Assembly (NCBI GenBank): GCA_000091165.1 | Contig: FP565575.1 | Coordinates: 2,640,001-2,672,000, forward strand | Source: Candidatus Methylomirabilis oxygeniifera | GTDB lineage: Bacteria; Methylomirabilota; Methylomirabilia; Methylomirabilales; Methylomirabilaceae | Length of the DNA: 32,000 nucleotides | Direction of reading: 5' to 3' | In this document: piece after piece, positions 8,727 to 32,000 of the stretch | Position numbering within the stretch: the first letter of the stretch is position 1 | Layout: every line of letters begins with the position of its first letter | Notes under the pieces: generated by a model | What the model was told of the DNA's origin: nothing | Databases searched by the model: none | Seen by the model: only the letters and a program-made list of their open reading frames with translations | Made by a program: the position numbers and the translations under genes

Positions 8727-8745
8727 GACAGACCAGGTATGCACG

Positions 8746-14945: not shown

Positions 14946-15084
14946 CTACGAAATGTCACAGCTATCCCTTTCAAGATGTGATATGGTATCGTACTGCTGC
15001 CGGATTGCACAAGTCCGCTTTTCTTCAAGACAAGGCCGAATGCCACCGGGCATGGCGGCGTGGGTTCGCAGGAGGAGATTGTCA

Positions 15085-15804
15085 ATGAGGTGTATCATAT
15101 TGAGTGCAGGTCAAGGCCGACGCCTGCTCCCGCTGACGGCGGAGGTTCCGAAATGCGCTCTTCAGATCGGGGGCCAATCGATCGTCGAGCGGCAAATCAC
15201 CCAGTTGATGAAGTGCGGCATCGACCAAGTGACTGTCATCGTGGGTTTCGGGGCCGACAAGGTGGAGCACATCATACGCAGTCATTTCCGGCCGGACCAG
15301 GCGACAACCCTGTATAATCCCTTTTTTGCCGTGAGCGATAATCTGGCCAGTTGCTGGCTGGCCCGTCACCTGATGACCGAGGACTTTATTCTGCTGAACG
15401 GCGATACCCTGTTCGAGCCGGCTATTCTTCAATCTCTCCTGGATACGCCGCTTGAGCCGATCACACTCGTCATAGACCGTAAACCGGCGTATGACGATGA
15501 CGATATGAAGGTGATGGTAGAAGAACGTCAAGCGCTCAGAATCGGGAAGACCTTGAGTCCGGAACAGTCTCATGGAGAGTCGATCGGTATGACGCTGTTC
15601 CGCGGAAGCGGGCCGAACCTCTTCTCCGACGCTATTGAGCGTGCGGTGCGAAAACCCGACGCCCTGACGTGGTGGTATCTCTCGGTCATTAACGAACTGG
15701 CGCAGACAGGTCTGGTCTGGACCTGTCCCGTCGAGGGTCTGAAGTGGGCCGAAGTGGACTGTCTCGCCGACCTTGAGTATGCCAGAAAACTGGCCGTCTT
15801 GTGA
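15085..15804 (+). CDS. LicC/IPCT-like sugar- or alcohol-phosphate cytidylyl(nucleotidyl)transferase
   Basis: 239 aa from ATG 15085 with a GGAGGAG SD at 15071-15077. It has the N-terminal signature IILSAGQGRRLLPLT..PKCAL and the C-terminal W.EVD...DL..A motif, as in LicC-type CTP:phospho-alcohol cytidylyltransferases. Confidence 0.8.
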   Translation: MRCIILSAGQGRRLLPLTAEVPKCALQIGGQSIVERQITQLMKCGIDQVTVIVGFGADKVEHIIRSHFRPDQATTLYNPFFAVSDNLASCWLARHLMTEDFILLNGDTLFEPAILQSLLDTPLEPITLVIDRKPAYDDDDMKVMVEERQALRIGKTLSPEQSHGESIGMTLFRGSGPNLFSDAIERAVRKPDALTWWYLSVINELAQTGLVWTCPVEGLKWAEVDCLADLEYARKLAVL

Positions 15805-15832
15805 GCGGAGCAATTCGGCGATCTGAGACCGT

Positions 15833-16633
15833 TTATGAATTGTTGCTCCCGGCCACCGTCTGAGCCAACTCCCAATCACTGATCGTATCCACGTCCAGCG
15901 CAGCCTCAGGAAATGGGAGCATGATGACGTCGATCGAAAGGTTGAGGCGCCGCGAGAGCCCGGCGAGGGCCTGAGGAAGCGACAACCATCCGAAGACAAA
16001 CCTCAAGACCGACGTCCAGCCCAGCATCGAAATGAGTCGGACCGGTTTCTTGCGCAGGCCTTCGACCCGGCTCCAGAACTGTATCAGCGAACGGCCTCGT
16101 GCGGTCAACACCGCATACAGGTTACATCCGCAGACCCCACCGTCCTGGAACTTGAGTACGGTACGCCGCATCGTCGGGTAAGCGGTCGCGACCAGATCGT
16201 GTGCGGCCAATCCGACTACGACATCGGCATTGCCGGCCCGCGCCGCCGAACAAAAGTAGTCGATGACCCGGGCGTTGAGGAGGGCATGGTCCGCCGTCAC
16301 CAGCAGAACCGGATGGTCCTGGGGTAACGACTGCATGACGGTGTATGCGCTGACGCTGGGCGTCGCATACGCCTCGTGCCATGCGACCGCCTCGGACACG
16401 ACCAGACCGCGAAGCTCGTTGTTCATCTCCACTGCCTGCCACTGAGGCCCGCACAGGATACGATCTCCGATCGCTTGCGCCTCAGCCAGGGCGCCCAGTA
16501 CGCGGAGGACCATGGGGACGCCTCCAACAGGAACCAGCGCCTTGCACTGGACTCCCGCTGCGCGAGCCACCGGGTCGTCAGGCGCACGGTCCCCGGCAAG
16601 CACAATCGCGGTAAACGGCTGACTATGACTCAT
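15833..16633 (-). CDS. MobA-like (NTP_transf_3) nucleotidyltransferase
   Basis: 266 aa. The N-terminus AIVLAGDRAPDDPVARAAGVQCKALVPVGGVPMV and the mid-protein LLVTADHALL resemble the GT-A fold MobA-like NTP transferase family. Its ATG overlaps the upstream gene's stop as ATGA. Confidence 0.65.
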   Translation of the reverse strand: MSHSQPFTAIVLAGDRAPDDPVARAAGVQCKALVPVGGVPMVLRVLGALAEAQAIGDRILCGPQWQAVEMNNELRGLVVSEAVAWHEAYATPSVSAYTVMQSLPQDHPVLLVTADHALLNARVIDYFCSAARAGNADVVVGLAAHDLVATAYPTMRRTVLKFQDGGVCGCNLYAVLTARGRSLIQFWSRVEGLRKKPVRLISMLGWTSVLRFVFGWLSLPQALAGLSRRLNLSIDVIMLPFPEAALDVDTISDWELAQTVAGSNNS

Positions 16634-17832
16634 TGCAATGCCTTTTCATAGATCCGGTAGCGCTTATACGGTACCCCCCCTATGGTGACCAGCATATTTC
16701 GCATCGGCATGTTGTCCTCCAGGATCCAGGACAGCTCAACCTCTCGGACTCCGCGCCTGATTTCATATTCGCGCACCGCATCGATGAGCATGAAGGCCAG
16801 CGCCGCCCCCATCGCGCCTCCTTGAAAAGACTTACGTACGCCCATTAGAGCGACGCGGGCCGTAGTCGGACGCCGAACCTTGAGCCGCCACAAGAGCTTG
16901 AGCCAGCCGAACGGCAACAAACGTCCATCAAGATCGCGTATCGCTTCATTGAGATTCGGAAAGGCCACGATCATGCCGACGGGCGCCCCGTCGATTTCCG
17001 CAATTTGTACGCACTCATCCTCAACTAATAGTCGCAAGCTGTTCCCCAGATCCTGGAACTCCTCCTCCGTGAAGGGAATGAAGCCCCAGTTTTCAGACCA
17101 CGCGTCCTCGTAGATCTCTTTAAGAATGCGGAGTTCTTCTTTCATTGATGATCTGCGCAACGGCCTGATTCGGACATAGCCGGCAGCTTTCTTCACAACG
17201 GTCCGCATGAGCGCAGGGGGCGTAAAATCGGCAGCCACACGGTAGGCCAGCAGGTCTTTCGAGCCCTGGTATCCCTCGGCGATGATCCGATCGGCATAAT
17301 AGGGGCGGGCATGACCCATCATAATCATGGGCGGCGTCTCGTACCCCTCCACGAGCAACCCGCACTCCTGGTTGATTGAGAGGTTGAATGGACCTCGGAT
17401 GCGTAACATCCCATGGTCGCGCAGCCATGTTTCCGCCGTACTCAACAAGGCGTGAAACGTTTCCGCGTCGTCCTCAGCTTCAAGCAGACCGAAAAAACCG
17501 GTGGCATCCCGATACTGCGCCTCATGCAGCGCGTCAATTTGGGCGCTGATTCGACCGATCGGCTTGGTCCCGCGGTAGGCGAGCCAGAAACAGGAGCGCG
17601 CGTGCGCGAAGTAGGGGTTACGCGGAGAGAACTGCTCCCGACGCTCGATCAGCAAGGGGGGAATCCACGCGGGATCGTCGGCATAGACCGACCACGGGAG
17701 ACGAATAAATCGGTGAAGATCCCGCGATCTGTTTATCGGTACAATGCGTACGGATTCACGAGTGGCTTGTATGGCAGGGGGTGTATCTCCAGGCAGGGTT
17801 GTGGAGTTCCGATCGGCCACTACGCCACCCAT
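16630..17832 (-). CDS. Large GNAT-like N-acyltransferase (candidate bacterial ceramide synthase)
   Basis: 400 aa from ATG 17832. The conserved-looking body starts at VRIVPINRSRDLHRFIRLPWSVY. The C-terminal acyl-CoA N-acyltransferase-like core is ..APVGMIVAFPN...VALMGVRKSFQGGAMGAALAF...ELSWILEDNMPMRN. The function call is an inference from context. Confidence 0.7.
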   Translation of the reverse strand: MGGVVADRNSTTLPGDTPPAIQATRESVRIVPINRSRDLHRFIRLPWSVYADDPAWIPPLLIERREQFSPRNPYFAHARSCFWLAYRGTKPIGRISAQIDALHEAQYRDATGFFGLLEAEDDAETFHALLSTAETWLRDHGMLRIRGPFNLSINQECGLLVEGYETPPMIMMGHARPYYADRIIAEGYQGSKDLLAYRVAADFTPPALMRTVVKKAAGYVRIRPLRRSSMKEELRILKEIYEDAWSENWGFIPFTEEEFQDLGNSLRLLVEDECVQIAEIDGAPVGMIVAFPNLNEAIRDLDGRLLPFGWLKLLWRLKVRRPTTARVALMGVRKSFQGGAMGAALAFMLIDAVREYEIRRGVREVELSWILEDNMPMRNMLVTIGGVPYKRYRIYEKALQ

Positions 17833-17888
17833 GCGGGAATCGATCTGCTCGCTTTTAACAAATCGTACAGTCCCCTTTCGTTTTTTTG

Positions 17889-17917
17889 TTGCACAAAACC
17901 GCTCAGTTTTGTATATA
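17889..17917 (+). promoter_or_regulatory. Weak sigma70-like promoter candidate (TTGCAC-17-TATATA) in the divergent intergenic region
   Basis: TTGCAC at 17889-17894 and TATATA at 17912-17917 (TATAAT at 17914-17919). The AT-rich core could act as a -10 element in either orientation. Firing rightward, it would leave a ~400-nt leader before ATG 18320. Confidence 0.25.
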
Positions 17918-18319
17918 ATACGCGCTGGCCTTTGGCAGTGACGGCGGTAGACCGGGCAGCTACCTGAGATGGACACTATTATGCACGTTTAGCCATGGCG
18001 TTCAACACATTAAATTGGTTTTATGAGACGGTATGTCTGCCATCCTCGTGCGCGTAGTGAGTGCAGACGAGTATCGCAACGGCGATGTACTGTTGTACAC
18101 CTCAATACGTCAGCTCCCTCAGAAAGGCGTGCGGCGCTGGCGATCTGCCGCCGGTCGTTTTATGCGGGCCGCTCAGCAGGTGGGCTTACCGCCTGCAGTC
18201 GTTACGAAGAGATTGAGCCTGTTCGGTTCCTCTTTAGCCAGTACGTAACAGACCTTTCCGGCGCTGAGAGGTTGGGTTATCAGTCAACTTCGTTTTGTGT
18301 ATAGGGGGGTGTAGGGGGA

Positions 18320-20146
18320 ATGATAACAGAACCAACGCCGACTGAGAATACCCTGCCGCTTCGAGTCACCGGCTTCTCCACGCTGGCCGAAGCGCTGGAT
18401 TATGCAGCCGGGGGGGGGACCGGATTCAATTTTTATGGGGACCGCGGTGAGCTGTACGCCGTCCTGCCGTATGCCGATCTTCGAGAGCAGGCGCGATTAC
18501 TGGCGCGTCGCCTTATGGGGCTGCGCCTCGAACGGGGCGCGCACGTGGCCATCGTCGCGGATACCGGTCCGGATTTTCAGCGCTTCTTCTTCGCGTGTCA
18601 GTATGCCGGCCTGGTGCCTGTTCCTCTGTCGGCATCGCTCCTCATAAGCGGTCGCAAGCGATACGTCACCCAACTTCGGGCGCTTCTGGCAAACTGTCGT
18701 CCGTCCATCGCGATGGCTCCACCTGAATTTTTCCCATTCCTCAGCGAGGCCGCCGATGGCCTCGAGCTGGTCCACGTCGGTACGGCAGACGCGTTTGACA
18801 GCCTGCCCGAATCCTCAGAGGAGTTGGAGCCGTTACGTTCCGAGGAGATGGCCTATCTTCAATATACCTCAGGGAGCACACGGTTTCCCCGCGGGGTCAT
18901 GATTACCCAGAGCGCGGTCCTTGCCAATCTGGAGGGGATCCTTCAACAGGGTCTTCAGATTCGCTCGGGAGATCGCGCGGTATCCTGGCTGCCTTTTTAT
19001 CACGATATGGGGCTTGTGGGATTTGTGCTCGCGCCGATGGTGGGCCAGGTATCCGTCGATTATCTGAAAACGCAATCGTTTGCCATGCGACCCCGGTTGT
19101 GGCTGGCCCTGATGACACAGGCGAAGGCCACGATCTCTTTCAGCCCTTCCTTTGGATATGAGATGTGCGTGAGGCGCCTCAGGCATGATGAGGCCGGCAG
19201 ATTTGACCTTAGCGCATGGCGCGCTGCAGGGGTAGGCGCTGAAACCATTCGGCCCGGCGTCTTAAAGGATTTTGCAGATGTGCTGGCGCCGAGCGGATTC
19301 AAGCCCAGCGCATTTCTGGCCTGCTATGGCATGGCGGAGGCCTCCCTTGCTGTGACGTTTGCGCCGATAGATACTGGTGTTGCCGTTGATCGGGTAGACC
19401 GAACCCTGTTGGCCAAGTATGGAGTGGCCTCCCCCCTGCACGAGTGTGAGATCGGGTCGGACTCGGATAAAACGAGCATAAGCCAATTTGTCAACTGCGG
19501 CGTTCCACTGTCCGGAATTGACGTTGAGATACGAGACGAACAGGGCCATGTTCTGCCTGACCGTCACGCAGGCATCATTTTCGTACGAGGCGCCAACATG
19601 ACCTCCGGTTACTTCGGCGATCCCGAGAAAACTCGAAAGGTCTTGTCTTCGGACGGATGGCTCGATACGGGAGACCTCGGATATCTTGTAGACGGCAGTC
19701 TCGTCATCATCGGCCGAAAGAAAGATGTCATTATCGTGCATGGACGGAATATCTGGCCTCAGGATCTGGAGCATCTTGCCGAGGAGTTACCGGAGGTCAG
19801 GCCTGGCGACGCATGCGCATTCTCGGTGGAGACCCCGGACCGGACCGAGATGGCGGTGATGGTCGTTCACTGCCGTGAGCTGGATACCGTCAAGCAGGCC
19901 GATTTTATCCGCCGGCTGCAAGGGCTTATCCGTGAGTATTTTGCGCTCGACTGTTTTGTTGAGCTTGTTCCTCCTCGTACCCTGCCGCGCACGTCCTCCG
20001 GGAAGCTCTCCCGTTCGAAGACCCGGGAAGAGTTCTTGGGTCGCAATGACGCGGCCCGACTCTTTCACGGCCGAAACGGATCCGGTCACATCAGTCTTCC
20101 GCAGCCCGGTCGGCAAGCGGACTCATGCGCGGCGTCATCGCGCTGA
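18320..20146 (+). CDS. Fatty acyl-AMP ligase / acyl-ACP synthetase (FAAL-like adenylate-forming enzyme)
   Basis: 608 aa with the AMP-binding core YLQYTSGSTRFPRGVMIT. It also has FAAL-like features (YGMAE, DTGDLGY, GRKKD, SSGKLSRS). Confidence 0.9.
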   Translation: MITEPTPTENTLPLRVTGFSTLAEALDYAAGGGTGFNFYGDRGELYAVLPYADLREQARLLARRLMGLRLERGAHVAIVADTGPDFQRFFFACQYAGLVPVPLSASLLISGRKRYVTQLRALLANCRPSIAMAPPEFFPFLSEAADGLELVHVGTADAFDSLPESSEELEPLRSEEMAYLQYTSGSTRFPRGVMITQSAVLANLEGILQQGLQIRSGDRAVSWLPFYHDMGLVGFVLAPMVGQVSVDYLKTQSFAMRPRLWLALMTQAKATISFSPSFGYEMCVRRLRHDEAGRFDLSAWRAAGVGAETIRPGVLKDFADVLAPSGFKPSAFLACYGMAEASLAVTFAPIDTGVAVDRVDRTLLAKYGVASPLHECEIGSDSDKTSISQFVNCGVPLSGIDVEIRDEQGHVLPDRHAGIIFVRGANMTSGYFGDPEKTRKVLSSDGWLDTGDLGYLVDGSLVIIGRKKDVIIVHGRNIWPQDLEHLAEELPEVRPGDACAFSVETPDRTEMAVMVVHCRELDTVKQADFIRRLQGLIREYFALDCFVELVPPRTLPRTSSGKLSRSKTREEFLGRNDAARLFHGRNGSGHISLPQPGRQADSCAASSR

Positions 20147-21078
20147 CGGGAGCGACCGGATTTATTGGAAGCGCCCTGGCTCGAAGGCTGACAAAGGAAG
20201 GATGGCAGGTACGCGCGCTACACCGTTCACCAACCCCGCCGGCATACCTGACGGGCATCTCGCTGGAGTGGGTACGGGGGACGCTCGATGATCGCGATAG
20301 CCTTGAAGGCCTGGTGGGCGACGCGGATGTTGTGATCCATTGCGCCGGGGCCCTGCGCGGTATTACCGAGACAGACTTTTACCCGGTCAATGTTGAGGCA
20401 GTCTCACGGCTGGCCTCTATCGCTGCGAGCCGCAGTCCTGCCCCCCGATTTCTCCTGATCTCATCCCTGGCAGCTCGAGAGCCCGGATTATCACCCTACG
20501 CGGCCAGCAAGCGGATGGGGGAGATCGCCCTGTCGAAAGCGGGTGACCGGCTGCTGTGGACCGCGCTTCGCCCTCCAGCGGTCTATGGTCCAGGTGACCG
20601 CGCATTGCTTCCCTTGCTTCGCCTGATGTGGCATGGGATTGCCCCCATACCTGGGCGCCAAGACGCCAGATTCTCCTTACTCTACGTGGAAGATCTGGCG
20701 GAAGCCGCGGTGAAATGGCTCGCCGGCGACGTCCCGGAGAGATGTGCATTTGAGTTGGATGATGGACATCCTCAGGGATATACGTGGCGCGAGGTGACGG
20801 AGACCTTCGAACGGCTCAGGGGAAGATGGGTGGTTCGTATTCACGTTCCCGAACTGATGTTGAAACTGACTGCCGGGCTTAACAAGATGGCGGCTTCCGT
20901 GATAGGATATTCCCCGATGTTGACCCCCGGCAAAGTACGGGAGTTCAGGCACCCGAACTGGATCTGCGATAACGCTCCGTTTCGCCGGGTCGTCGACTGG
21001 ACGCCGACGGTGGAGCTGGAAGAGGGGCTGCGGCTGACGCTTGGCCTCCAGGGTGGTAAACTGACAACTAGAAACTGA
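20125..21078 (+). CDS. NAD(P)-dependent epimerase/dehydratase-family (extended SDR) reductase, candidate ceramide reductase CerR
   Basis: 317 aa with the Rossmann motif LTGATGFIGSALARRL and the catalytic Y...K in YAASKRMGE. It overlaps the ligase gene by 22 nt. Confidence 0.8.
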   Translation: MRGVIALTGATGFIGSALARRLTKEGWQVRALHRSPTPPAYLTGISLEWVRGTLDDRDSLEGLVGDADVVIHCAGALRGITETDFYPVNVEAVSRLASIAASRSPAPRFLLISSLAAREPGLSPYAASKRMGEIALSKAGDRLLWTALRPPAVYGPGDRALLPLLRLMWHGIAPIPGRQDARFSLLYVEDLAEAAVKWLAGDVPERCAFELDDGHPQGYTWREVTETFERLRGRWVVRIHVPELMLKLTAGLNKMAASVIGYSPMLTPGKVREFRHPNWICDNAPFRRVVDWTPTVELEEGLRLTLGLQGGKLTTRN

Positions 21079-21111
21079 AAACTCAACACTTCATAGCTTC
21101 ATAGTGAACAG

Positions 21112-21360
21112 ATGACCCACTACGAAACGATACTTCCACAGCTCTATGAGATCTTGAAGCCGTTCACGCAGGAAGGCCAGGCTCTATCCGATGAGACGGA
21201 GCTCGTAGCCGATCTCGACCTCGATTCGATGAAGGTCATGGAGATCCTGCTTGAGGTGGAGGAGCGGTTCGACATCTCAATCCCCTTAAATGTCATCCCG
21301 GACGTCCGAACCATTAGAGATTTTGCCCGCCAGATCGAGCAATTGACGGAGCGGAGGTGA
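21112..21360 (+). CDS. Acyl carrier protein
   Basis: 82 aa and acidic. The phosphopantetheine attachment motif is DLDLDSMKVMEIL. Confidence 0.9.
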   Translation: MTHYETILPQLYEILKPFTQEGQALSDETELVADLDLDSMKVMEILLEVEERFDISIPLNVIPDVRTIRDFARQIEQLTERR

Positions 21361-22547
21361 CAGTGCTTCTGGAGAAGTTCCGACCACTCGCCGACGCCCG
21401 TGAGGCGTTGACACAATTAAGCCAAGATCCCTTTCGGGTGACGATTGAACGAATTCTGTCGCCGACGGAGGCCCTCGTCAATAGTCGTCCAATGATTCTG
21501 GCCGGAACGAACAACTACCTCGGTTTGACGTTCGATCCTGAGTGCATAGAAGCAGCAGTGCAAGCGGTGCGGGAACAAGGAACAGGTACGACAGGATCCA
21601 GAATGGCAAACGGCAGCTTCAGCGGACATCTTGCATTGGAGAAAGAGTTGGCAGAATTTTTTGGGCGCCGGTGGTGTGACGTATTCTCAACCGGCTATCT
21701 GGCCAACTTGGGCGTGATAGCGGCGCTCACCGGGCCTGGCGACGTGATCCTGATCGATGCCGATTGCCATGCGAGTATTTACGATGGATGCCGGATGAGC
21801 GGGGCGGAGATTATTCGATTTCGTCACAACGACGTTGCCGACCTCTATAAGCGCCTCGCGCGTTTGAAGGAGCGAAGCACGAACACGCTGATCATTGTGG
21901 AGGGTCTCTACAGCATGCTCGGCGATCGGGCGGCGCTGGCGGAGATTGCGGCCGCAAAACGCGAGTTCGGCGCGTATCTGCTGGTCGACGAGGCCCATTC
22001 GCTTGGCGTTTTGGGGGAGCGGGGCCGTGGGCTGGCCGAGGAGGCCGGCGTCGAAGACAGCATCGACTTTATCGTCGGAACGTTCAGTAAGAGCCTGGGC
22101 GCGACCGGCGGGTTCTGCGTCTCGGATCATCCTGAGATTGACCTGGTCAGATATGTCAGCCGTCCGTACATCTTCACCGCGTCGCCTTGTCCATCAGTTA
22201 TCGCCTCCACAAGAGTCGCCTTGCACAAGCTTCGGACTCATCCGGAGCTGCGCGTGCGACTCTGGAACAATGCGCGGCAGTTGTATGACTCGTTGAAAGG
22301 ATTGGGATTCAGGCTGGGCCCGGACCCCAGTCCGATTATTGCGGCCCGATTCAGCCAGAAAGACGAGACGATCGCTTTCTGGAACGGTCTCCTCGATCAA
22401 GGCATCTACGTCAACATGATATTGCCGCCGGCCGCTCCCGACGGTGGAAGCCTGCTCCGATGTAGCGTGAGCGCGGCGCATACACCGGATCAGATGGACC
22501 GCATTTGCCAAGCCTTTGCGTCCGTCAAGGCGGCTCTCCCCTCTTAA
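21357..22547 (+). CDS. spt: Alpha-oxoamine synthase, serine palmitoyltransferase-like (PLP-dependent)
   Basis: 396 aa. Its GTG start overlaps the ACP stop (GTGA). It has NNYLGL, the PLP-lysine motif GTFSKSLGATGG, and VDEAHSLGVLG. The Spt versus BioF/Kbl assignment rests on context. Confidence 0.8.
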   Translation: MTVLLEKFRPLADAREALTQLSQDPFRVTIERILSPTEALVNSRPMILAGTNNYLGLTFDPECIEAAVQAVREQGTGTTGSRMANGSFSGHLALEKELAEFFGRRWCDVFSTGYLANLGVIAALTGPGDVILIDADCHASIYDGCRMSGAEIIRFRHNDVADLYKRLARLKERSTNTLIIVEGLYSMLGDRAALAEIAAAKREFGAYLLVDEAHSLGVLGERGRGLAEEAGVEDSIDFIVGTFSKSLGATGGFCVSDHPEIDLVRYVSRPYIFTASPCPSVIASTRVALHKLRTHPELRVRLWNNARQLYDSLKGLGFRLGPDPSPIIAARFSQKDETIAFWNGLLDQGIYVNMILPPAAPDGGSLLRCSVSAAHTPDQMDRICQAFASVKAALPS

Positions 22548-22641
22548 TCTCGCCAATTGATGCGATTGTCGATGTTCTCGTCGGCGTGTTACGATGAAAT
22601 AAAATTCATAGCCCGCCGCGGGTGTTTCGGGGCTGATTGAC

Positions 22642-23583: not shown

Positions 23584-23873
23584 GTGACAGATGCAGAAAG
23601 CGCAGCGTGGTCGAGAAACCGGCCAGCCCAGGCCGTAAGTTATTATTCTTTGATGAGCACAAGCTCGCAACTCTGCTCGCGAATGCCGGCGCTGGAGCAT
23701 AATCATTCCCGCAGTGTAGGCTCCCATCGCGTAAAATCGGCCTAGGTTCGGAAGAGCTACCCGCAGTGACGATACCACGGAGGCAGCATAGCAGCATCGT
23801 AACAATGTTGCAGCAACGTTGGCCCCGGAGGCCTTGCGTTTAGCCGCGTCAGTTCAGACAGGTGTGTGTTGCT

Positions 23874-25628
23874 ATGCGGTTTTTGATCACCATTATTCGG
23901 AAGTATCCCCGCCGAAGCGCGCTGACGATGGTCTGCCTGCTGTTTGCGAGCGTTGCAGAGGGGGTCGGGCTCCTCATGCTGCTGCCCGTGCTCAGCGTGG
24001 CGACCGACAATCAGACCCGGGACACCGGTTCTCACCTGTTCGGAACGGAGCAGTTTCTGATGCAGGCGTTATCAGTCGTGGGGCTGACGCCGACGGTCGG
24101 CACGTTGCTGATTCTTATCGTCCTCTGTGTGGCGGTTAAATCGGCCTTCACCCTGTTGGCGAAAATTCAGGTCGGATACACTGTGACGCACGTCGCCACC
24201 GGTTTGCGGCTTTCTCTGCTGCAAACCCTGCTGGCTACACGGTGGGAGTATTACGTACGGCAACCGGTCGGGAGCTTAGCCAACGCGGTAGGCACTGAGG
24301 CGATGCGGGCGGCACTGGCGTATCTTGAAGGCGCCAAAGGCATCACCTTATTCGTTGAAGCCATCGTCTATGCAGGTGTGGCCTTCGTTGTTGCAGGGAA
24401 GGCGACCTTGACGTTTCTGATTCCAGGAGTATTGATCCTCTACGGTCTCAGCTATCTCGTTCGTATGGCGCATCAGGCGGGAACCCGCCAGACCAGATTA
24501 TTGAAATCCCTTGTGGCCGGCTTGACGGATAGCCTCCAATCCATTAAACCACTCAAGGCAATGGCGCGGGAAGAGCTGATCGGTCCATCGCTTCAGTCCA
24601 GCACCAGGCGCTTGAACCGGGCGGTCCGGCGAGACGTGCTGAGTACGGAGGCCCTGAGTTCCTCTCAGGATCTCGGGCTGGCGATCGTCATTGCTGTCGG
24701 GTTATACCTGGCTTTGAGTCGGTGGAATATGCCCCTGAATGCCGTCATGGTGATGGTCCTTCTTCTTGCTCGAATGCTGACCTGTCTTGCCAAGACGCAA
24801 CGGCAATACCAAAAAATGCGAACCCTTGAAAGCGCCTTCTGGTCATTGCGGGCTGCGATCGACGGCGCGAACCGTGATCGCGAAACGGAACCCGGAGGCG
24901 CGTCTCCCAGCCTCGAAAGGTCTCTTCGCCTGGACAAGGTCAGCTTCGGATATGACAAGCAATGGGTGCTTCGGGATGCGTCGCTGACCATTCCTGCGGG
25001 ATCATTCACTGTCATCATAGGGCCTTCAGGGGCCGGCAAGACGACGGTTGCCGATCTGTTGACGGGCCTGTTGCGCCCGCAGCAAGGCTGCGTCTGGATC
25101 GACGATCTGCCGTTAGACCGGATTGATTTGAGGCAGTGGCGGCGGATGATCGGGTACGTGCCGCAAGAGCCTTTCCTCCTTCACGACACCGTGCTGCAGA
25201 ACGTGACGCTTGGCGATCCCGGTCTGAACGAGGCCGATGCCGAGGCGGCACTGCGTGCCGCCGGCGCCTGGGACTTTGTGACGGCACAACCGTCCGGGAT
25301 CCACAGCTCGGTCGGAGAACGCGGCACCGCACTTTCCGGAGGCCAGCGGCAACGCATTGCGATCGCCAGGGCGTTGGTGCATCGGCCGAAGCTGCTGATC
25401 CTGGATGAGGTGACCAGCGCGCTTGATCAGGAGAATACGGCGACGATTTGCCGAACGCTGCGCGGTCTTCGTGGTCGACTGACCATCGTGGCGATCTCAC
25501 ACGAGTCTGCCGTGGTAGAGAGCGGCGACAGGGTCTATCGGATACACAAGGGCGAAGCGTCTTTAGTCACCAACGGCTGCGATTCGGATGTGGTCTTCGG
25601 TGGATCGGTGAAACAATCTCAAAGGTAG
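23874..25628 (+). CDS. ABC exporter, fused TMD-NBD (MsbA-like lipid/polar-lipid exporter)
   Basis: 584 aa from ATG 23874 (GTG 23862 is an alternative). A six-TM N-terminal domain is followed by Walker A GPSGAGKTT, signature LSGGQRQRIAIARAL and Walker B LLILDEVTSALD. Confidence 0.9.
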   Translation: MRFLITIIRKYPRRSALTMVCLLFASVAEGVGLLMLLPVLSVATDNQTRDTGSHLFGTEQFLMQALSVVGLTPTVGTLLILIVLCVAVKSAFTLLAKIQVGYTVTHVATGLRLSLLQTLLATRWEYYVRQPVGSLANAVGTEAMRAALAYLEGAKGITLFVEAIVYAGVAFVVAGKATLTFLIPGVLILYGLSYLVRMAHQAGTRQTRLLKSLVAGLTDSLQSIKPLKAMAREELIGPSLQSSTRRLNRAVRRDVLSTEALSSSQDLGLAIVIAVGLYLALSRWNMPLNAVMVMVLLLARMLTCLAKTQRQYQKMRTLESAFWSLRAAIDGANRDRETEPGGASPSLERSLRLDKVSFGYDKQWVLRDASLTIPAGSFTVIIGPSGAGKTTVADLLTGLLRPQQGCVWIDDLPLDRIDLRQWRRMIGYVPQEPFLLHDTVLQNVTLGDPGLNEADAEAALRAAGAWDFVTAQPSGIHSSVGERGTALSGGQRQRIAIARALVHRPKLLILDEVTSALDQENTATICRTLRGLRGRLTIVAISHESAVVESGDRVYRIHKGEASLVTNGCDSDVVFGGSVKQSQR

Positions 25629-25682
25629 AGAGTCGGAATGGCTGCGCAGTAGTCCCTCCTCGCGGAAGGGATGCGGATGACC

Positions 25683-25711
25683 TTGACTAAACCGACGCGA
25701 GCATATAGTAT
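25683..25711 (+). promoter_or_regulatory. Sigma70-like promoter candidate (TTGACT-17-TAGTAT)
   Basis: TTGACT at 25683-25688 and TAGTAT at 25706-25711 (TATAGT at 25704-25709). It lies in the 184-nt gap between the ABC exporter and the CDP-alcohol phosphotransferase gene. Confidence 0.35.
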
Positions 25712-25812
25712 AAGTTGCTGTTTTTAACCTCGCCTTCCGAACGCGTGACCCGGTATCGGGATAACGGCGGGGCGGCGTCCCGCATTCCCAGAAAGTGTAT
25801 TCGTTTCACGTC

Positions 25813-27018
25813 ATGACCGTATACGCCCACATACTCGGAGAGGCTCCAGCCACGCTATGGGGGCTTTCATCCAGAGAGCGCTACCGTCGTGTACTGGCGC
25901 CGGTCGGTGTCACCGCGATTGCGGATGATCTCTCCTCGTTGCGTCCGGACGATTCGGTGTTGATTGTTCGAGGGGATTATCTCTTGGACAGCCGCGTCCT
26001 CCAGGGCTTGACTGAGTCCTTACACGTCATGATTGAGGCGCCGGCCGGGCCATCGCGTGCGCTTATCGTAGCTCACGTGCCGGCCAATCTGGCAATGGAG
26101 GCGAGGGCGGTTCTCTCCCTGGAAAAGGGTGCGGCACTCCCGCCATCCGTTCGTATCGAAAAGCTTGAAGACCAACTGGTCTCATTCGATAGGCGGTTGC
26201 GCAAAGCGGAGCCACCCTTTGCGGAACCGATCAGGGCCGATACGAAACGGGCGTTGGAGGAGCGCCTATTTTCCAGTTCGTATAAAGGCGTGACCGATCT
26301 CGTCACGAAGTGGCTGTGGCCTTCGCCTGCCAAATGGGCCGTACATCTGTGCGTAGCCGCCGGGCTGAGACCCAACCATGTGACCGCGGTCAGTGTGCTG
26401 TTAGTCATAGCGGCTGCGATCCTTTTTGCGAAAGGTCTCTACGGGTGGGGTCTTGCCGCCGGATGGTTCATGACCTTTCTTGATACGGTGGATGGCAAGC
26501 TTGCTCGGGTGACGGTCACCAGCACCAGATTTGGGCACCTGCTTGACCACGTGTTGGATCTGGTACATCCGCCCTTCTGGTACCTGCTGTGGGGATTCGG
26601 ACTGGAGTCATTCGCCCCTGGCATTCCGTGGCTGACCCTGCGTGTGGTGATATGGGCGATTTTCATTGGATACATTGGCGGACGTCTTGTCGAGGGGATA
26701 TTCAGAAAGTGGCTTGCCGGTTTTGTCATCTTCTGCTGGCGTCCTTTTGACTCGTACTTCCGATTGGTAACGGCCAGGCGCAACCCGAATATGATTCTGC
26801 TCACCGCAAGCCTCATCTTCAGCAGGCCGGACCTGGGATTAGTGGCGGTTGCCGAGTGGACAGTGCTGTCGACGCTTGTGCTCCTGCTCCGCCTCGGCAT
26901 TGCCTTCTATGCGCGCACGCATGGACCGTTGCGATCCTGGCTGGCCGACGATACCGGGCGTGCCGGCAACGGCTCGCTCGCCGTACGGCTGTTTGTCCAT
27001 CAAGTTCCCACTCCGTAA
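25813..27018 (+). CDS. CDP-alcohol phosphotransferase with N-terminal extra domain (DIPPS-like architecture)
   Basis: 401 aa from ATG 25813 (GTG 25795 is an alternative). A perfect CDP-OH-P signature D-x2-DG-x2-AR-x8-G-x3-D-x3-D (DTVDGKLARVTVTSTRFGHLLDHVLD) is encoded at 26482-26559. It is preceded by ~155 soluble residues and then YKGVTDLVTKWLW...RPNHVT. Confidence 0.85.
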   Translation: MTVYAHILGEAPATLWGLSSRERYRRVLAPVGVTAIADDLSSLRPDDSVLIVRGDYLLDSRVLQGLTESLHVMIEAPAGPSRALIVAHVPANLAMEARAVLSLEKGAALPPSVRIEKLEDQLVSFDRRLRKAEPPFAEPIRADTKRALEERLFSSSYKGVTDLVTKWLWPSPAKWAVHLCVAAGLRPNHVTAVSVLLVIAAAILFAKGLYGWGLAAGWFMTFLDTVDGKLARVTVTSTRFGHLLDHVLDLVHPPFWYLLWGFGLESFAPGIPWLTLRVVIWAIFIGYIGGRLVEGIFRKWLAGFVIFCWRPFDSYFRLVTARRNPNMILLTASLIFSRPDLGLVAVAEWTVLSTLVLLLRLGIAFYARTHGPLRSWLADDTGRAGNGSLAVRLFVHQVPTP

Positions 27019-27048
27019 GTCGGGAGTGGCAGAGGACGATTTCACGCT

Positions 27049-28095
27049 ATGTTGCAAGGTATGATGCCAGCGCACGGGAAGAGTGACGCGAGTCGTGCAT
27101 CCGGTGCGTGCCTGCCGTTGGACAAACACGGCACGAGGCGGGTCGGCGTGCTGATCAACCCGGAGAGCGGGACGAATCGAGAGGGTCTTCAGGCCCTCCT
27201 ACACGTCCTGGACCAGTATAAGCCGGTGATCCACCGGTATGTCGTCGGCCCGGCAAGTGTAGCCGGCGCTCTTGCGGCAATGGCTGCCCAGCGAGTGGAT
27301 GTCGTGGCTGTCTGCGGTGGGGATGGAACCGTCCAGGCTGTGTTGACTGCCCTGTTACACAACGGACCCTTTGCCGCATTGCCGTCCCTGGCGCTCATTG
27401 CAGGAGGGACCTCGAATATGACCGCTGCCGATGTCGGCGTAGTCGGCAAGCCGGCGCGGGCATTGCGGCGCCTGTTGGCATGGTCTGAGGGAAGGGGCCC
27501 GACGGGTCAGGTTGTGCGACGGGCGATCCTGCGAGTGGATGGCGGGGCGGACCGCGCGCCGCAGTTTGGGATGTTTTTCAGCGCGGCCGGCATCGTCGAC
27601 GTCACCCGCGCCCGATGGGCGACCCGTCGGCGGGCCAGATCGAAACCGATGCGCGGCGCCTTGGGGACGGCTGTTACGGTCAGCCGGTATCTGCTGGGTC
27701 TTGCGCTTGGACGTCGAGTTGTCGAACCGACTCCGATCTCGGTCCGCTTAGACGGTCGGTCACACAGTGCGAATAACTACCTCGCGCTGTTCATCACGAC
27801 CTTGGAACGGTTAAATCCCGGGATACGACCATACTGGGGCGAGGGACATGGTCCGCTCAGGTATACGGCGGTGGCCTATCAACCGCGGAACCTGCTGCTG
27901 GCTGCGCCTTCGCTTATCCGTGGCAGACGCAGCCGATACCTGACGCCGGAGTCCGGGTATGCGAGCGGGAATATCCATGAAGCCGTGTTGCAACTTCAGA
28001 CGGAATGCGCGCTTGACGGAGAACTACTCGGGAGCGCGACGCCGCGCCCACTCGCGGTAACTTGCGGAGGGGAGGTTAACTTTGTACGATTATGA
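27049..28095 (+). CDS. Lipid kinase of the DAGK-catalytic-domain family (YegS/BmrU/sphingosine-ceramide kinase-like)
   Basis: 348 aa with VGVLINPESG, VCGGDGTVQAV and IAGGTSNMTAADVG, the canonical DAGK_cat motifs. Confidence 0.8.
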   Translation: MLQGMMPAHGKSDASRASGACLPLDKHGTRRVGVLINPESGTNREGLQALLHVLDQYKPVIHRYVVGPASVAGALAAMAAQRVDVVAVCGGDGTVQAVLTALLHNGPFAALPSLALIAGGTSNMTAADVGVVGKPARALRRLLAWSEGRGPTGQVVRRAILRVDGGADRAPQFGMFFSAAGIVDVTRARWATRRRARSKPMRGALGTAVTVSRYLLGLALGRRVVEPTPISVRLDGRSHSANNYLALFITTLERLNPGIRPYWGEGHGPLRYTAVAYQPRNLLLAAPSLIRGRRSRYLTPESGYASGNIHEAVLQLQTECALDGELLGSATPRPLAVTCGGEVNFVRL

Positions 28096-29203
28096 AAAAA
28101 AAGCGGCGGTTGTCGCTCAGCAAGAGACTCCGGATTTTTCCCGCCGGGAGATCAAGAAGCTCGTTCACGATCTATTCACGCCCAAGCCGCTACTCTATTG
28201 GACCGATTTCCTGGTTACGGTGTCCATCGGGTACGGTTTTGCCGCAATCTACCTGACGGCGCCGGCCTTCTCGCTGCTTCAGATTGCCGCAATGTTGTTG
28301 TCCGGACTGGCGTTGTTTCGGGTCGGCATCTTCATTCATGAGCTTGTCCACAGGGAGGAACCCTCCATGATAGGATTTCATATCGCCTGGAATCTTCTTG
28401 TCGGGATGCCCCTGCTCATGCATTCATTTCTGTACAGGAATCACCTCGACCATCATCACCCACGCAAGTTCGGAACGCCCGCCGATGGTGAGTATCTACC
28501 CCTGGGCTCGGCTCCCCTTCGAGAAACTGCGTTGTATTTCGCACAAGTCCCGGTCCTGCCGATCATGGCCGCCTTCCGCTTTCTGATCCTCGTGCCGTTG
28601 TCGTTCCTGAATCCCCGTTGGCGAAGGTGGCTCCTCGAGTGTCGGTCATCCTATGCGATCGATCCCTACTATAGGCGCACCATCCCATCAACGGAACGTC
28701 TGGATCTCTGGGCTGCGCTTGACCTGCTCGGCTTTGTCTGGGTGGTCGGTGCTCTTACCTTGATTCTCAGCGGTGTGATCGCATGGACGACGATCGGGCT
28801 CTTGTATTGCCTGGCCATCTGGACGATCGGCCTGAACTGGATTCGTACTCTTGCTGCGCACCGGTTTATGAATGAGGGCGGCAACATGACGTATGAGGAG
28901 CAGGTTGAAGACTCCCTCACCATCGGGGGGCATTCCCTCCTGTCGTATCTCCTGTTTCCGATCGGTTTGCGGTACCACACCATTCATCACCTGTTCCCGC
29001 TGATGCCCTATCATGCGATGGGCGAGGCGCATCGCCGCCTGATGAATGGGCTTCCCGAAGACTCGGTGTACAGAAAGACGATCGTCCCCGGTTTGGTGGC
29101 TGTGCTCCGAGATCTCCTGCGTCACGCCAGTCTGGCAGGAAAGGCCGGCCGCAATCCGATGCAGGTGTGGCGCCATCCGGAAACGGCGACGTATGCGCGA
29201 TAA
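28082..29203 (+). CDS. Membrane fatty-acid desaturase-family enzyme (candidate sphingolipid desaturase/hydroxylase)
   Basis: 373 aa. The TTG start at 28082 overlaps the kinase gene by 14 nt, and there is no in-frame ATG before residue 71. Three His boxes are present (HELVH, HLDHHH, HTIHHLFP) with flanking TM segments. Confidence 0.8.
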   Translation: MYDYEKKAAVVAQQETPDFSRREIKKLVHDLFTPKPLLYWTDFLVTVSIGYGFAAIYLTAPAFSLLQIAAMLLSGLALFRVGIFIHELVHREEPSMIGFHIAWNLLVGMPLLMHSFLYRNHLDHHHPRKFGTPADGEYLPLGSAPLRETALYFAQVPVLPIMAAFRFLILVPLSFLNPRWRRWLLECRSSYAIDPYYRRTIPSTERLDLWAALDLLGFVWVVGALTLILSGVIAWTTIGLLYCLAIWTIGLNWIRTLAAHRFMNEGGNMTYEEQVEDSLTIGGHSLLSYLLFPIGLRYHTIHHLFPLMPYHAMGEAHRRLMNGLPEDSVYRKTIVPGLVAVLRDLLRHASLAGKAGRNPMQVWRHPETATYAR

Positions 29204-30155
29204 ACCGGCGGCGTGGACGCGGCTCACCTCTTTCATCGAACAGTATAGCGCGAGACCTGTGACGCCGGGGATTCGTGCGCTGGCCGACGCGCTTCTAAAG
29301 CAGTACGGCAACGGCGCTGCCGCAATACTCGCATACGGTTCCTGCTTTCGCAACCGGACGGATGAGGGGCTTGTCGACCTGTGCGTGCTGGTCGACAGCT
29401 ACCGGTCTCTCCCTGGAGCCGTATGGCAGCACTGGCTCTACCGGGTCCTACCTCCCACGGTATTTTATCTGGAGATCCCGCACAACGGCCGCCGGCTTCG
29501 GGCAAAATATATCGTGATCTCACGCGAAGATTTCGAGCGAGGCGTCTCGCCGCGCTGTTTCTATTCGTATCTCTGGGGTAGGTTCGCACAACCTGCGGGG
29601 GTACTGTATGCCAGAGACGAGCGAAACGCCCATCGGGTCTACAAGGCATTAGCCCAGGCCGTCGTCACATTTGTGGGTCGTGTCGTGCCGATTCTGCCGT
29701 CTATGTTCGATGCCCGCGATCTGTGGCAACAGGGGCTGCGCCTGAGCTATGGCACTGAATTGAGACCTGAGCGGACGGACGCCGTCGCGCGGCTGGTTGA
29801 CCACTCTTTTGATTACTATGAGCAGATCAGTCGCATCGGAATGGAGTGCGTGCAGTTCGATGTGCGACCGATCGACGAGGCTCGGACAACCAGATACCGT
29901 GCGGCAATCCCGGACTCGATCCGTTTCATTGCCGACCTTGCATGGCGCATTCGGAAAGTACACGGAAAAATACTGAACGTCCTGCGTCTGCTGAAAGGAC
30001 TATTCACGTTCAAGAGCGGCAGGGACTATATCCTGTGGAAGATCGAACGACATTCCGGCATGAAAGTAGAAGTGCCGCCGTTCTACGAGCGTTACCCATG
30101 GTTCGCAACGGCGTTGATCCTCGGAAGGCTCTATCGGCGCGGGGCGTTCCGTTAG
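29193..30155 (+). CDS. Tam41/Mmp37-like nucleotidyltransferase (putative lipid-phosphate cytidylyltransferase)
   Basis: 320 aa from ATG 29193, overlapping the desaturase stop by 11 nt. Collinear resemblances to Tam41, from memory of its motifs: AYGSCF (YGSGVF), VDLCVLVD (IDFI..V), VFYLEIPHNGRRLRAKYIVISREDF (VYFN....NG..IKYGVVS...L), YLWGRFAQP (YLAGRLQKP) and LSYGTELRPE (ISY.GD.RM.E). The coding call is strong. The family call is moderate. Confidence 0.55.
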   Translation: MRDKPAAWTRLTSFIEQYSARPVTPGIRALADALLKQYGNGAAAILAYGSCFRNRTDEGLVDLCVLVDSYRSLPGAVWQHWLYRVLPPTVFYLEIPHNGRRLRAKYIVISREDFERGVSPRCFYSYLWGRFAQPAGVLYARDERNAHRVYKALAQAVVTFVGRVVPILPSMFDARDLWQQGLRLSYGTELRPERTDAVARLVDHSFDYYEQISRIGMECVQFDVRPIDEARTTRYRAAIPDSIRFIADLAWRIRKVHGKILNVLRLLKGLFTFKSGRDYILWKIERHSGMKVEVPPFYERYPWFATALILGRLYRRGAFR

Positions 30156-30172
30156 GGGACGATCGGTCAGCC

Positions 30173-30688
30173 ATGAATCGCGTACCGGCTATCTTATCCA
30201 GCCTTTTGCTCGCGTACCTGCTCTTACTGCCATGGAATGTGCAAGCCCTGATCGAAGCAACCGAGGGGGCATGCACCCGCACTTCCGCCGCCATCGATGT
30301 TCGAGTACAGGGGGTGAGGAGCGATCGCGGCAACATTATGTTCGTCCTGTACGGCGACAATCCAGACGATTTTCTGGTAAAAGGGAAGAGGATCTTTAAG
30401 CAACAGTTTGCCGCGAAGCGCGGAACCGTGGCGTTCTGCGTGATCGTCCAAAAGGCGGGCGCCTATGCCGCCAGTGTGTACCACGATGAAAACGGCAACA
30501 AGAAATTTGATAGGAACTGGATCGGAATACCCGCCGAGGGCGCCGGTTTCTCGAATAATCCCACGCTGCTGTTAGGCCCACCCAGCCATGCGCAAGCGGC
30601 GTTTCAGGTCTCGAACGGCCCCAAGCGCGTGGAGATCCAGCTCAATTATTCCATCGTATCCGGACGACAAAGCCCTAATCTGCCATAG
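30173..30688 (+). CDS. Exported DUF2141-family protein
   Basis: 171 aa from ATG 30173 with a signal peptide (MNRVPAILSSLLLAYLLLLPWNVQA). It has SDRGNIMFVLY..., YHDENGNKKFDRNWIGIPAEGAGFSNN and ..I.L, as in DUF2141. Confidence 0.7.
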   Translation: MNRVPAILSSLLLAYLLLLPWNVQALIEATEGACTRTSAAIDVRVQGVRSDRGNIMFVLYGDNPDDFLVKGKRIFKQQFAAKRGTVAFCVIVQKAGAYAASVYHDENGNKKFDRNWIGIPAEGAGFSNNPTLLLGPPSHAQAAFQVSNGPKRVEIQLNYSIVSGRQSPNLP

Positions 30689-30968
30689 TCAAGGACCGGT
30701 CGCTTTCGAAGTTGAAGATTGCCCCATATTCCAAAGTAGATTATCAACATGCACCAAAAGTATATGAATGGCGGCGCAGGAGCTCCGGTACATGTTGGAG
30801 AGGTTCAGTCCTCTGGCCGGAGGAATGAAGGTGTTACCGAAAGGTCATCTGCTTGCCGTTATCTCGATATGGGCGGGTAGGTATTAGGTTCCCCCGCGTA
30901 CACTCCTTATTTCCGGGGAGAGGCGCACCCCGGCTGGCGAACGAGACGACTGCGCCCCACTATGGCTC

Positions 30969-30992
30969 GCGGGCCGCACGGCCCGCCTTTTT
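30969..30992 (+). terminator. Rho-independent terminator
   Basis: A 7-bp all-GC stem GCGGGCC (30969-30975) / GGCCCGC (30980-30986) with loop GCAC, then C and TTTTT (30988-30992). The T-run is present only on the + strand. Confidence 0.65.
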
Positions 30993-31006
30993 ACGGAGGC
31001 TCCATA

Positions 31007-31880: not shown

Positions 31881-32000
31881 ACGATCTCCGAAGCTAAATA
31901 TTTAAGTGCTGTAGGCTGGGATGAGTGATGCGAATCCCGGCAGTTGGCTTACTTCCATCGATACGCCGCAACGTCCGGTGATACCGCCAAGGTCATTGAG

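Follow-up and report, generated by a model that had tools for sequence, protein, structure and literature searches.

Introduction

Which lipid would a densely packed set of sphingolipid-type genes make in Candidatus Methylomirabilis oxyfera (oxygeniifera in GTDB), a nitrite-dependent methane oxidiser of the phylum NC10 / Methylomirabilota? We addressed this question in a 32,000-nucleotide stretch of its genome (contig FP565575.1, assembly GCA_000091165.1, forward-strand positions 2,640,001 to 2,672,000), hereafter the window, whose first nucleotide is position 1 in all coordinates given here. The original prediction had read the fourteen consecutive coding sequences (CDSs) at 15085-30688 as a cluster that builds a ceramide-like backbone and then phosphorylates, activates, decorates and exports it, and had taken the product to be a probably undescribed lipid, having recognised this combination of genes in no characterised sphingolipid locus. 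The functional part of this interpretation stands and the novelty does not: the cluster CC_1152-CC_1168 (CCNA_01210-01226) of Caulobacter has exactly this combination and, according to work published in 2022-2026, produces ceramide phosphoglycerate (CPG) as well as ceramide diphosphoglycerate (CPG2) (PMC9393093; PMC11324152 and its S1 Text; PMC12275187), and an undescribed product is not supported. We put the probability that the window locus is the Ca. M. oxyfera counterpart of this CPG/CPG2 system at about 75%. In this reading the locus is a CPG/CPG2-type anionic sphingolipid system in a new phylum, with a few lineage-specific accessories, and it predicts both a lipid class and a possible biomarker for this organism.

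A family-for-family match with the Caulobacter cluster

The CPG/CPG2 reading is drawn from a family-for-family match with the published cluster, and the evidence laid out below consists of family assignments, motifs, a predicted fold, synteny, co-occurrence and gene fusions. Caulobacter, an alphaproteobacterium, and the window host share the families of Spt, AcpR, CerR, AasR, bCerS, a CpgD-type enzyme and a MobA/CofC-like enzyme, and also those of a calcineurin-type phosphoesterase, CpgA with its N-terminal domain, CpgB, the Tam41-like CpgC and LptF/LptG, with the same local order cpgA-cpgB-cpgC. All fourteen CDSs are present in the families first described, as seen in the open reading frame (ORF) list and in Pfam and NCBIfam searches, and their overlaps are as originally reported: ATGA between the genes of the GNAT acyltransferase and of a MobA-like nucleotidyltransferase (NT2), GTGA (4 nt) between those of the acyl carrier protein (ACP) and serine palmitoyltransferase (Spt), 22 nt between those of the fatty acyl-AMP ligase (FAAL) and the SDR reductase, 14 nt between those of the DAGK-family kinase and the desaturase, and 11 nt between those of the desaturase and the Tam41-like protein. 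Positions 20173-32000 of the window are 100% identical to contig WBTX01000001.1 (GCA_009026205.1). The boundary first set at 15085 was too tight, in that lptF, lptG and a metallophosphoesterase gene upstream of it are part of the conserved set, and the true span of the cluster is about 11857-30990.

The backbone genes

At the centre of the locus lies an alpha-oxoamine synthase gene (21357-22547, plus strand), whose product had been called Spt-like. It passes the NCBIfam equivalog NF047599 with 631.8 bits (cutoff 500) and scores 424-439 bits against the solved bacterial (Sphingomonas) SPTs, versus 212 against KBL, 197 against cysteate acyltransferase, 187 against BioF and 120 against CqsA. The equivalog score and the ranking with the solved SPTs rule out the other four enzymes of this superfamily, including the BioF/Kbl grouping that the original prediction had named as counting against it, and on this sequence evidence the protein is a true Spt.

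The neighbours of Spt are the genes of the bacterial ceramide route, as the original prediction had it. A dedicated, AcpR-like ACP (21112-21360, plus strand; Pfam PP-binding) and an AasR-like fatty acyl-AMP ligase / acyl-ACP synthetase (18320-20146, plus strand; NF006624, 762 bits against a cutoff of 600) adjoin Spt, and loading of the ACP by the FAAL-type ligase is predicted. Between them lies a CerR-like extended SDR, the putative ceramide reductase (20125-21078, plus strand; Pfam Epimerase, E 5.7e-26). On the opposite strand is a bCerS-like GNAT N-acyltransferase, or bacterial ceramide synthase (16630-17832, minus strand; Pfam Acetyltransf_1), whose ORF opens at 17976 and whose likely start at 17832 gives the 400 residues first quoted; it shares 50.5% identity with the protein that takes the position of CC_1154, the Caulobacter bCerS (PMC11324152; PMC9393093), in a collinear Roseomonas cluster described below. 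Judged by family, Spt, ACP, FAAL-type ligase, SDR and GNAT form a bacterial ceramide set of the Caulobacter type.

The head-group genes

The remaining genes had been interpreted as a module for phosphorylation, nucleotide activation and head-group addition together with export functions, which agrees with our assignments. The first is a CpgB-like lipid (ceramide) kinase (27049-28095, plus strand; Pfam DAGK_cat, E 2.5e-16), whose Caulobacter counterpart, CC_1160 (CpgB), is a demonstrated ceramide kinase (PMC11324152; PMC9393093). The second is the CpgC-like, Tam41-fold nucleotidyltransferase (29193-30155, plus strand; 320 aa), assigned by fold and family profile, with no Pfam match above threshold. 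It reaches 15.3 bits (E 0.013) against PF09139, under the gathering cutoff of 24, whereas 16 of the 19 members of its family match PF09139 (best E 2.4e-10), the top PDB match of the family profile is Tam41 (6ig2), and the five best Foldseek matches of its AF2 model (pLDDT 84.8) are all Tam41, with E values down to 6.6e-10; the original description of this protein as Tam41-like was thus correct. The mitochondrial CDP-diacylglycerol synthase Tam41/TAMM41 (PF09139; 6ig2, 6ig4, 7ecd) has the same predicted fold, a nucleotidyltransferase domain and a helical domain, with Foldseek TM up to 0.64 and an identity of only about 15%. The motifs YGS...D and KY..S..D...GRF.QP are common to both, judged against what we take to be the Pfam consensus. 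The Tam41 substrate is phosphatidate, whereas the context of the window protein suggests ceramide-1-phosphate as its lipid substrate. The PF09139 score is below threshold, the match in fold is clear, and the product of 29193-30155 is, as far as its modelled structure goes, a Tam41-fold protein of a separate bacterial subfamily. In Caulobacter, CC_1161 (CpgC) carries a Tam41 InterPro signature and is needed for the step from ceramide-1-phosphate to CPG, by a mechanism that is not known (PMC11324152; PMC9393093).

A search with the Tam41-like family profile over 1.84 billion representatives found 1497 clusters, the best 150 of which were listed. Natural fusions of the domain occur among these listed matches: with a CDP-alcohol phosphotransferase (P0345, 757 aa) in at least 21 members, on many independent contigs, one of them from a metagenome-assembled genome (MAG) of the Lysobacterales, with a DAGK kinase (P0259, 662 aa) in at least two, and with a MobA-like nucleotidyltransferase (P0342, 594 aa) in at least one. 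Through these fusions the CpgC-type enzyme is linked to each of its proposed partners, namely the phosphotransferase, the kinase and the MobA-like enzyme.

The third enzyme of the module is a CpgA-like CDP-alcohol phosphotransferase (25813-27018, plus strand, in an ORF listed as 25795-27018; Pfam PF01066, CDP-OH_P_transf), with a soluble N-terminal domain of about 190 residues, transmembrane segments from residue 196 onwards and an intact motif D230xxDGxxAR-x8-GxxxDxxxD255. CC_1159 (CpgA) is likewise a PF01066 enzyme with an N-terminal cytoplasmic domain (PMC11324152 S1 Text), and AF2299 and DIPPS also have such an extra domain. The N-terminal domain (25813-26380) could be a degenerate nucleotidyltransferase domain, as in fusions of the IPCT/DIPPS type; its resemblance to the 'GD' strand in the first nucleotidyltransferase of the locus, VLIVRGDYLLDSRVLQGL versus FILLNGDTLFEPAILQSL, is local and weak, and with an hhalign P of 0.0027 and a probability of 11% the support for this identification was insufficient.

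That first nucleotidyltransferase (NT1, 15085-15804, plus strand; Pfam NTP_transferase / NTP_transf_3) has the IPCT/LicC fold and is CpgD-like. CpgD (CC_1152) is an enzyme of this fold that has been shown to make CDP-glycerate from phosphoglycerate (PMC12275187), and its crystal structures are described in bioRxiv 10.64898/2026.05.18.725363. The residues highlighted there are G12, R16, K26, N90, N110-G111-D112, S170 and W201, with N90, N110 and S170 touching the glycerate moiety and the Arg, Lys and Asp acting in catalysis (bioRxiv 10.64898/2026.05.18.725363). All 34 members of the NT1 family have G9, G11, R13, K23, N105-G106-D107 and S166, and 33 of them have N86 and W197; these conserved residues sit 3-5 residues from the published CpgD numbers, in a mapping by position only. 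We predict, from sequence, that NT1 is a CTP:phosphoglycerate cytidylyltransferase.

Could the same ceramide instead receive inositol phosphate or another polyol phosphate, NT1 being of the inositol-1-phosphate type and the phosphotransferase DIPPS- or PIP-synthase-like, to give a lipid resembling inositol phosphoceramide? The inositol-lipid pathways built on IPCT/DIPPS, PIP synthase or the Bacteroides inositol phosphoceramide system do, like the window, combine a cytidylyltransferase of this fold with a CDP-alcohol phosphotransferase. The best NCBIfam match of NT1 is the IPCT half of IPCT/DIPPS, the best matches of the phosphotransferase are archaetidylinositol-phosphate and PIP synthases, and the PDB matches include IMPCT (4jd0) for the former and PIPS (6wm5) for the latter. 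These scores are far under the cutoffs, however, at 71.6 and 30.1 bits against 580 for IPCT/DIPPS and at 46-47.5 bits against 170-180 (47.5 against 180 for the highest). CpgD too has IMPCT as its best structural match, yet its substrate is phosphoglycerate (PMC12275187). The NT1 family has an invariant N-G-D, and residues at the CpgD glycerate positions (by the positional mapping), where the Thermotoga IMPCT has C-G-D, and no inositol-1-phosphate synthase gene was found in the window or in the listed neighbourhoods of related loci. An inositol-type head group is therefore unlikely.

A further alternative is a Kennedy-type route to a lipid like sphingomyelin or ceramide phosphoethanolamine, in which CDP-choline or CDP-ethanolamine would come from the LicC-like enzyme, the phosphotransferase would move the head group onto ceramide, and an FkbM-family protein of the cluster would methylate it. 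NT1 does match LicC (1jyk) in the PDB, and the PGAP name of its Pseudomonas homologue is 'phosphocholine cytidylyltransferase family protein'. Nonetheless, the cluster has no choline or ethanolamine kinase, FkbM is missing from nearly all related clusters, the conserved pair of ceramide kinase and Tam41-like enzyme and their fusions would go unexplained, and the characterised homologous system makes phosphoglycerate head groups, all of which makes such a route very improbable.

Two further proteins complete the CPG/CPG2 module. NT2, the MobA-like nucleotidyltransferase (15833-16633, minus strand; Pfam NTP_transf_3, E 2.3e-12), is the counterpart of CC_1153, a MobA/CofC-like nucleotidyltransferase needed for CPG2 (PMC11324152; PMC9393093). 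Its nearest solved protein is the uncharacterised TTHA0179 of Thermus (2dpw), and a closer relationship to CofC or MobA in the PDB was not found. The calcineurin-type metallophosphoesterase (11857-12870, plus strand; Pfam Metallophos, E 3.4e-15), whose ORF opens at 11584 and whose likely start is the ATG at 11857, corresponds to CC_1158, a phosphoesterase of the same type that contributes to CPG2 formation (PMC11324152).

The export genes

Both LptG (12811-13878, minus strand; TIGR04408, 319.5 bits against a cutoff of 240) and LptF (13875-14945, minus strand; TIGR04407, 314.7 bits against 230) exceed their NCBIfam equivalog cutoffs. The lptG ORF extends to 13941, and the GTG at 13878 abuts the lptF stop. 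The pair adjoins the cluster at 12811-14945, as had been pointed out, and CC_1155 and CC_1156 are LptG2 and LptF2 (PMC11324152; PMC9393093). Downstream of Spt is an MsbA/HepA-like ABC exporter with fused transmembrane and nucleotide-binding domains (23874-25628, plus strand, in an ORF listed as 23862-25628; Pfam ABC_membrane and ABC_tran), which scores under the cutoff of each NCBIfam equivalog. According to the literature, a flippase for bacterial sphingolipids has yet to be identified (PMC11087976). By its family and position, this Spt-adjacent exporter is a candidate for that function; it is found beside Spt in most lineages, is far more widely conserved than the Wzx-like gene of Caulobacter and is thus a lead on the missing flippase.

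A proposed pathway

By homology with the Caulobacter system, the substrates, product and transport steps would be as follows. The FAAL-type ligase would load a fatty acid onto the dedicated ACP, Spt would condense the acyl-ACP with serine, the GNAT-type bCerS would N-acylate the product of Spt, and the SDR (CerR) would reduce the N-acylated product to dihydroceramide, one chain of which may be altered by a membrane desaturase/hydroxylase. The CpgB-like kinase would then give ceramide-1-phosphate, which the CpgC-like, Tam41-fold enzyme would convert to the first phosphodiester head group. CDP-glycerate would be made by the CpgD-like enzyme of the IPCT/LicC type, and the CpgA-like CDP-alcohol phosphotransferase would add the second phosphoglycerate from it, an addition to which the MobA-like nucleotidyltransferase and the metallophosphoesterase may contribute. 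Finally, the lipid would be flipped by the ABC exporter and taken on to the outer membrane by LptFG together with the other components of the Lpt bridge.

A more specific, and rather doubtful, version of this scheme has the Tam41-fold enzyme acting as a CTP:ceramide-1-phosphate cytidylyltransferase that makes CDP-ceramide, with the ABC exporter, LptFG and the DUF2141 protein encoded by the last gene of the operon forming a sphingolipid transport route. If it were true, the kinase, the Tam41-like enzyme and the phosphotransferase would be the sphingolipid analogue of the route from phosphatidate through CDP-diacylglycerol to head-group addition, and CDP-ceramide would be an activated lipid intermediate that has never yet been observed.

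Conservation of the gene set around Spt

Is this gene set a coherent unit or an accident of one genome? We searched 80 loci around close relatives of Spt, from the Nitrospirota, Desulfobacterota, Gammaproteobacteria, Nitrospinota, Calditrichota and Methylomirabilota, with the window proteins (locus numbers beginning with L are ours). In the 35 loci whose sequence covers the whole 10 kb to either side, the SDR was present in all 35, the FAAL in 33, lptFG and the ABC exporter in 28 each, NT2 in 26, the GNAT in 24, NT1 in 22, the metallophosphoesterase in 14, the kinase and the Tam41-like gene in 10 each and the CDP-alcohol phosphotransferase in seven; in all 28 loci with lptF/G these genes were within 10 kb of Spt. 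The co-conservation that the original prediction had proposed to look for is borne out. In 14 of the 18 loci that have both, the kinase gene lies directly beside the Tam41-like gene, and in two more the desaturase gene is all that separates them. Gene order around Spt is otherwise shuffled among phyla, and the same content in a shuffled order points to selection on content rather than to shared ancestry of one arrangement. Recurrence around Spt in many phyla and in differing orders also rules out chance adjacency of the fourteen genes. The published survey was confined to Proteobacteria; our data extend it by placing the full set, with lptFG inside it, on an IncP plasmid and in further phyla, among them the Nitrospirota, Desulfobacterota and Nitrospinota.

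The window order of phosphotransferase, kinase and Tam41-like gene is that of cpgA-cpgB-cpgC, and also that of Azotobacter and Pseudomonas luteola in a table published in 2024. On a Nitrospirota-type contig (L084) the window order of phosphotransferase, kinase, desaturase and Tam41-like gene is repeated, and the module is adjoined by lptFG, the phosphoesterase and both nucleotidyltransferases. The metallophosphoesterase co-occurs with lptFG, the kinase or the Tam41-like gene in this locus, in a Syntrophobacteria MAG (L086) and on two plasmids (L081 and L090).

The best link from the window to Caulobacter is plasmid pRo-1 of Roseomonas gilardii (L090, NZ_CP095555.1, 1-16909), whose genes are collinear with CC_1153-CC_1162 as published, the HIT gene among them. 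Its order is nucleotidyltransferase, bCerS-like gene, (desaturase), LptF/G, HIT, (DUF2141), metallophosphoesterase, CDP-alcohol phosphotransferase, acylglycerol kinase, hypothetical protein and then Spt, with the DUF2141 gene as an insertion after HIT and before the metallophosphoesterase gene. Protein identity between pRo-1 and the window is 32-50%. The bCerS-like gene of pRo-1 is labelled 'dATP pyrophosphohydrolase', which is probably a misannotation.

The other plasmid, the IncP plasmid pPNP1 of Pseudomonas sp. JS425 (L081, NZ_CP073662.1, 57838-88713), has 14 window homologues: the ABC exporter, Spt, ACP, SDR, FAAL, an IS5-interrupted GNAT, NT2, lptF, lptG, the kinase, the Tam41-like gene, the metallophosphoesterase, the CDP-alcohol phosphotransferase and NT1. 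It seems that an outer-membrane lipid pathway that brings its own LptFG can move horizontally. Identities between pPNP1 and window proteins range from 32 to 57%, except for the metallophosphoesterase (27% across 45% of its length). Like the CPG-type clusters of Azotobacter vinelandii and P. luteola (Olea-Ozuna et al. 2024, S2 Table), the pPNP1 cluster is contiguous with lptFG in its middle, and in all three, as in the window, homologues of CC_1166-1168 are missing; pPNP1 also shares with the window the ABC exporter beside Spt. The gammaproteobacterial clusters lack FkbM, FA_desaturase and DUF2141, all of which are present in the window, whereas pPNP1 adds a glycosyltransferase and an Asp/Asn beta-hydroxylase. 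The pPNP1 cluster lies beside a class 1 integron with sul1, and near-identical matches to it are found on a plasmid of Pseudomonas BYT-5, with a plasmid of Diaphorobacter giving a more distant match.

Departures from the Caulobacter plan

Several points weigh against the assignment of the window locus to the CPG/CPG2 system. In the literature searched, no sphingolipids were reported from Ca. M. oxyfera, nor were lipid data or a paper linking Methylomirabilis to sphingolipids found. Orthology to the Caulobacter proteins is inferred from family, architecture, synteny and a transitive chain via other bacteria, and NT1 and the phosphotransferase have, as described above, their best NCBIfam scores against inositol-phosphate enzymes, though far below cutoffs. 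In place of the Wzx-like candidate flippase of Caulobacter, CC_1166, the window carries an MsbA-like ABC exporter. LptC2 is absent, no LptC-family ORF being found in the window, as are the HIT protein and the gene resembling a CDP-glycerol glycerophosphotransferase. FkbM, DUF2141 and an FA_desaturase gene within the operon are found in the window in addition. Its lptFG may be either a dedicated or a housekeeping pair, both proteins passing the equivalog cutoffs. Two relatives also depart from the window arrangement. In Methylomirabilis sp. (L083; GCA_002634395.1, NSJM01000004.1, 7220-11496), the head-group module, made up of a short ORF like the CDP-alcohol phosphotransferase (202 aa), the kinase, the desaturase, the Tam41-like gene and DUF2141, lies away from Spt and beside RND efflux and CopCD genes. 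In a Ca. M. oxygeniifera MAG (L001; JACPQW010000210.1, 9711-17686), with an Spt 96% identical to that of the window, FkbM, the ABC exporter and the cpg genes 3' of Spt are replaced by a NeuB/CMP-sugar cassette (NeuB-like, HAD, SDR, aldehyde dehydrogenase, CMP-sugar-type cytidylyltransferase and transketolase genes). The arrangements of L083 and L001 indicate that head-group chemistry may vary within the genus.

The placement of the module in L083 also bears on the idea that a glycerolipid, or an acceptor related to lipopolysaccharide (LPS) or lipid A, is the substrate of the kinase, Tam41-like enzyme, phosphotransferase and metallophosphoesterase, whose linkage to Spt would then be secondary here. 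In the Syntrophobacteria MAG (L086; DATKKR010000081.1, 4254-16580), lptF, lptG, the metallophosphoesterase, the kinase and the Tam41-like gene are surrounded by Wzy, sulfotransferase and glycosyltransferase genes and by three genes for lipid A acyltransferases, and an Spt gene is lacking within 10 kb; CpgB phosphorylates diacylglycerol in vitro as well (PMC11324152 S1 Text), and Tam41 proper uses phosphatidate. Set against this, deletions of the homologous Caulobacter genes specifically remove ceramide phosphate, CPG or CPG2 (PMC11324152; PMC9393093), and linkage between the module and Spt is seen not only in the window but also in L041, L043, L048, L060, L077, L080, L081 and L090. We consider a glycerolipid or LPS-related acceptor quite unlikely, and the CPG/CPG2 reading preferable.

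Accessory genes of the cluster

The FkbM methyltransferase and the DUF2141 protein are lineage-variable accessories. The former (22642-23583, plus strand; Pfam Methyltransf_21, E 2.5e-13) is a lineage-specific extra that, among the Spt loci compared, was seen only in the Methylomirabilis relatives L002 and L089. L002 (DATMXF010000092.1) is labelled 'Patescibacteria group bacterium', and its proteins are 91-98% identical to those of the Methylomirabilis cluster, apart from the metallophosphoesterase (86%) and FkbM (67%); the contig is probably mis-binned.

The membrane di-iron desaturase/hydroxylase (28082-29203, plus strand; Pfam FA_desaturase, E 5.9e-26) has the His boxes HELVH, HLDHHH and HTIHH. 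Its gene is translationally coupled between those of the kinase and the Tam41-like protein, and occupies the same position in L083, L084 and L089.

The last gene of the operon (30173-30688, plus strand; Pfam DUF2141, E 3e-31) encodes an exported beta-sandwich protein with a signal peptide, an identical copy of which is found on a Methylomirabilis contig. Its predicted structure is a generic beta-sandwich with no significant PDB match, and no paper linking DUF2141 to sphingolipids was found in the literature searched. DUF2141 is a recurrent neighbour: its genes are found among or next to those of the cpg type in Roseomonas, Qipengyuania and Methylomirabilis (window, L083, L089), and two loci centred on Spt, one from a member of the Methylomirabilota (L003) and one from a Nitrospinota MAG (L018), contain it as well. 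In Sphingomonas oligophenolica and on one Nitrospirales contig it is not beside cpg genes, and this placement in some genomes makes its membership of the cluster only tentative.

Regulation-like signals and neighbouring genes

The intergenic region from which the GNAT and FAAL transcription units diverge (17833-18319) contains promoter-like matches at 17890-17919 (plus strand) and 18005-17978 (minus strand), which are resemblances to the consensus only. Downstream of the DUF2141 gene, a terminator-like GC hairpin with a T tract (30969-30986, plus strand), made of seven G-C pairs followed by CTTTTT, is the probable 3' end of the plus-strand operon. No Rfam families or tRNAs were found in the window. 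On the 3' side of the hairpin lies a 147-aa ORF (31007-31450) with an N-terminal hydrophobic segment and without a family match, which is kept in the 100%-identical assembly and is not present in related loci.

Further genes lie towards the other end of the window. An XhoI-family restriction endonuclease gene (PF04555, E 7.6e-92) overlapping an N6/N4 DNA methylase gene forms a type II restriction-modification pair at 112-1801, and a HepT-like (HEPN) ribonuclease toxin gene is found at 3468-3890. The pal gene (9519-10220), which had been placed next to the cluster together with lptFG, is about 5 kb upstream of it. Directly upstream of pal is a minus-strand operon (5081-9423) encoding an exported protein with a CrtC/lipocalin domain, a duplicated permease of the MacB/FtsX type (854 aa) and an ABC ATPase, which together constitute an envelope-related transporter.

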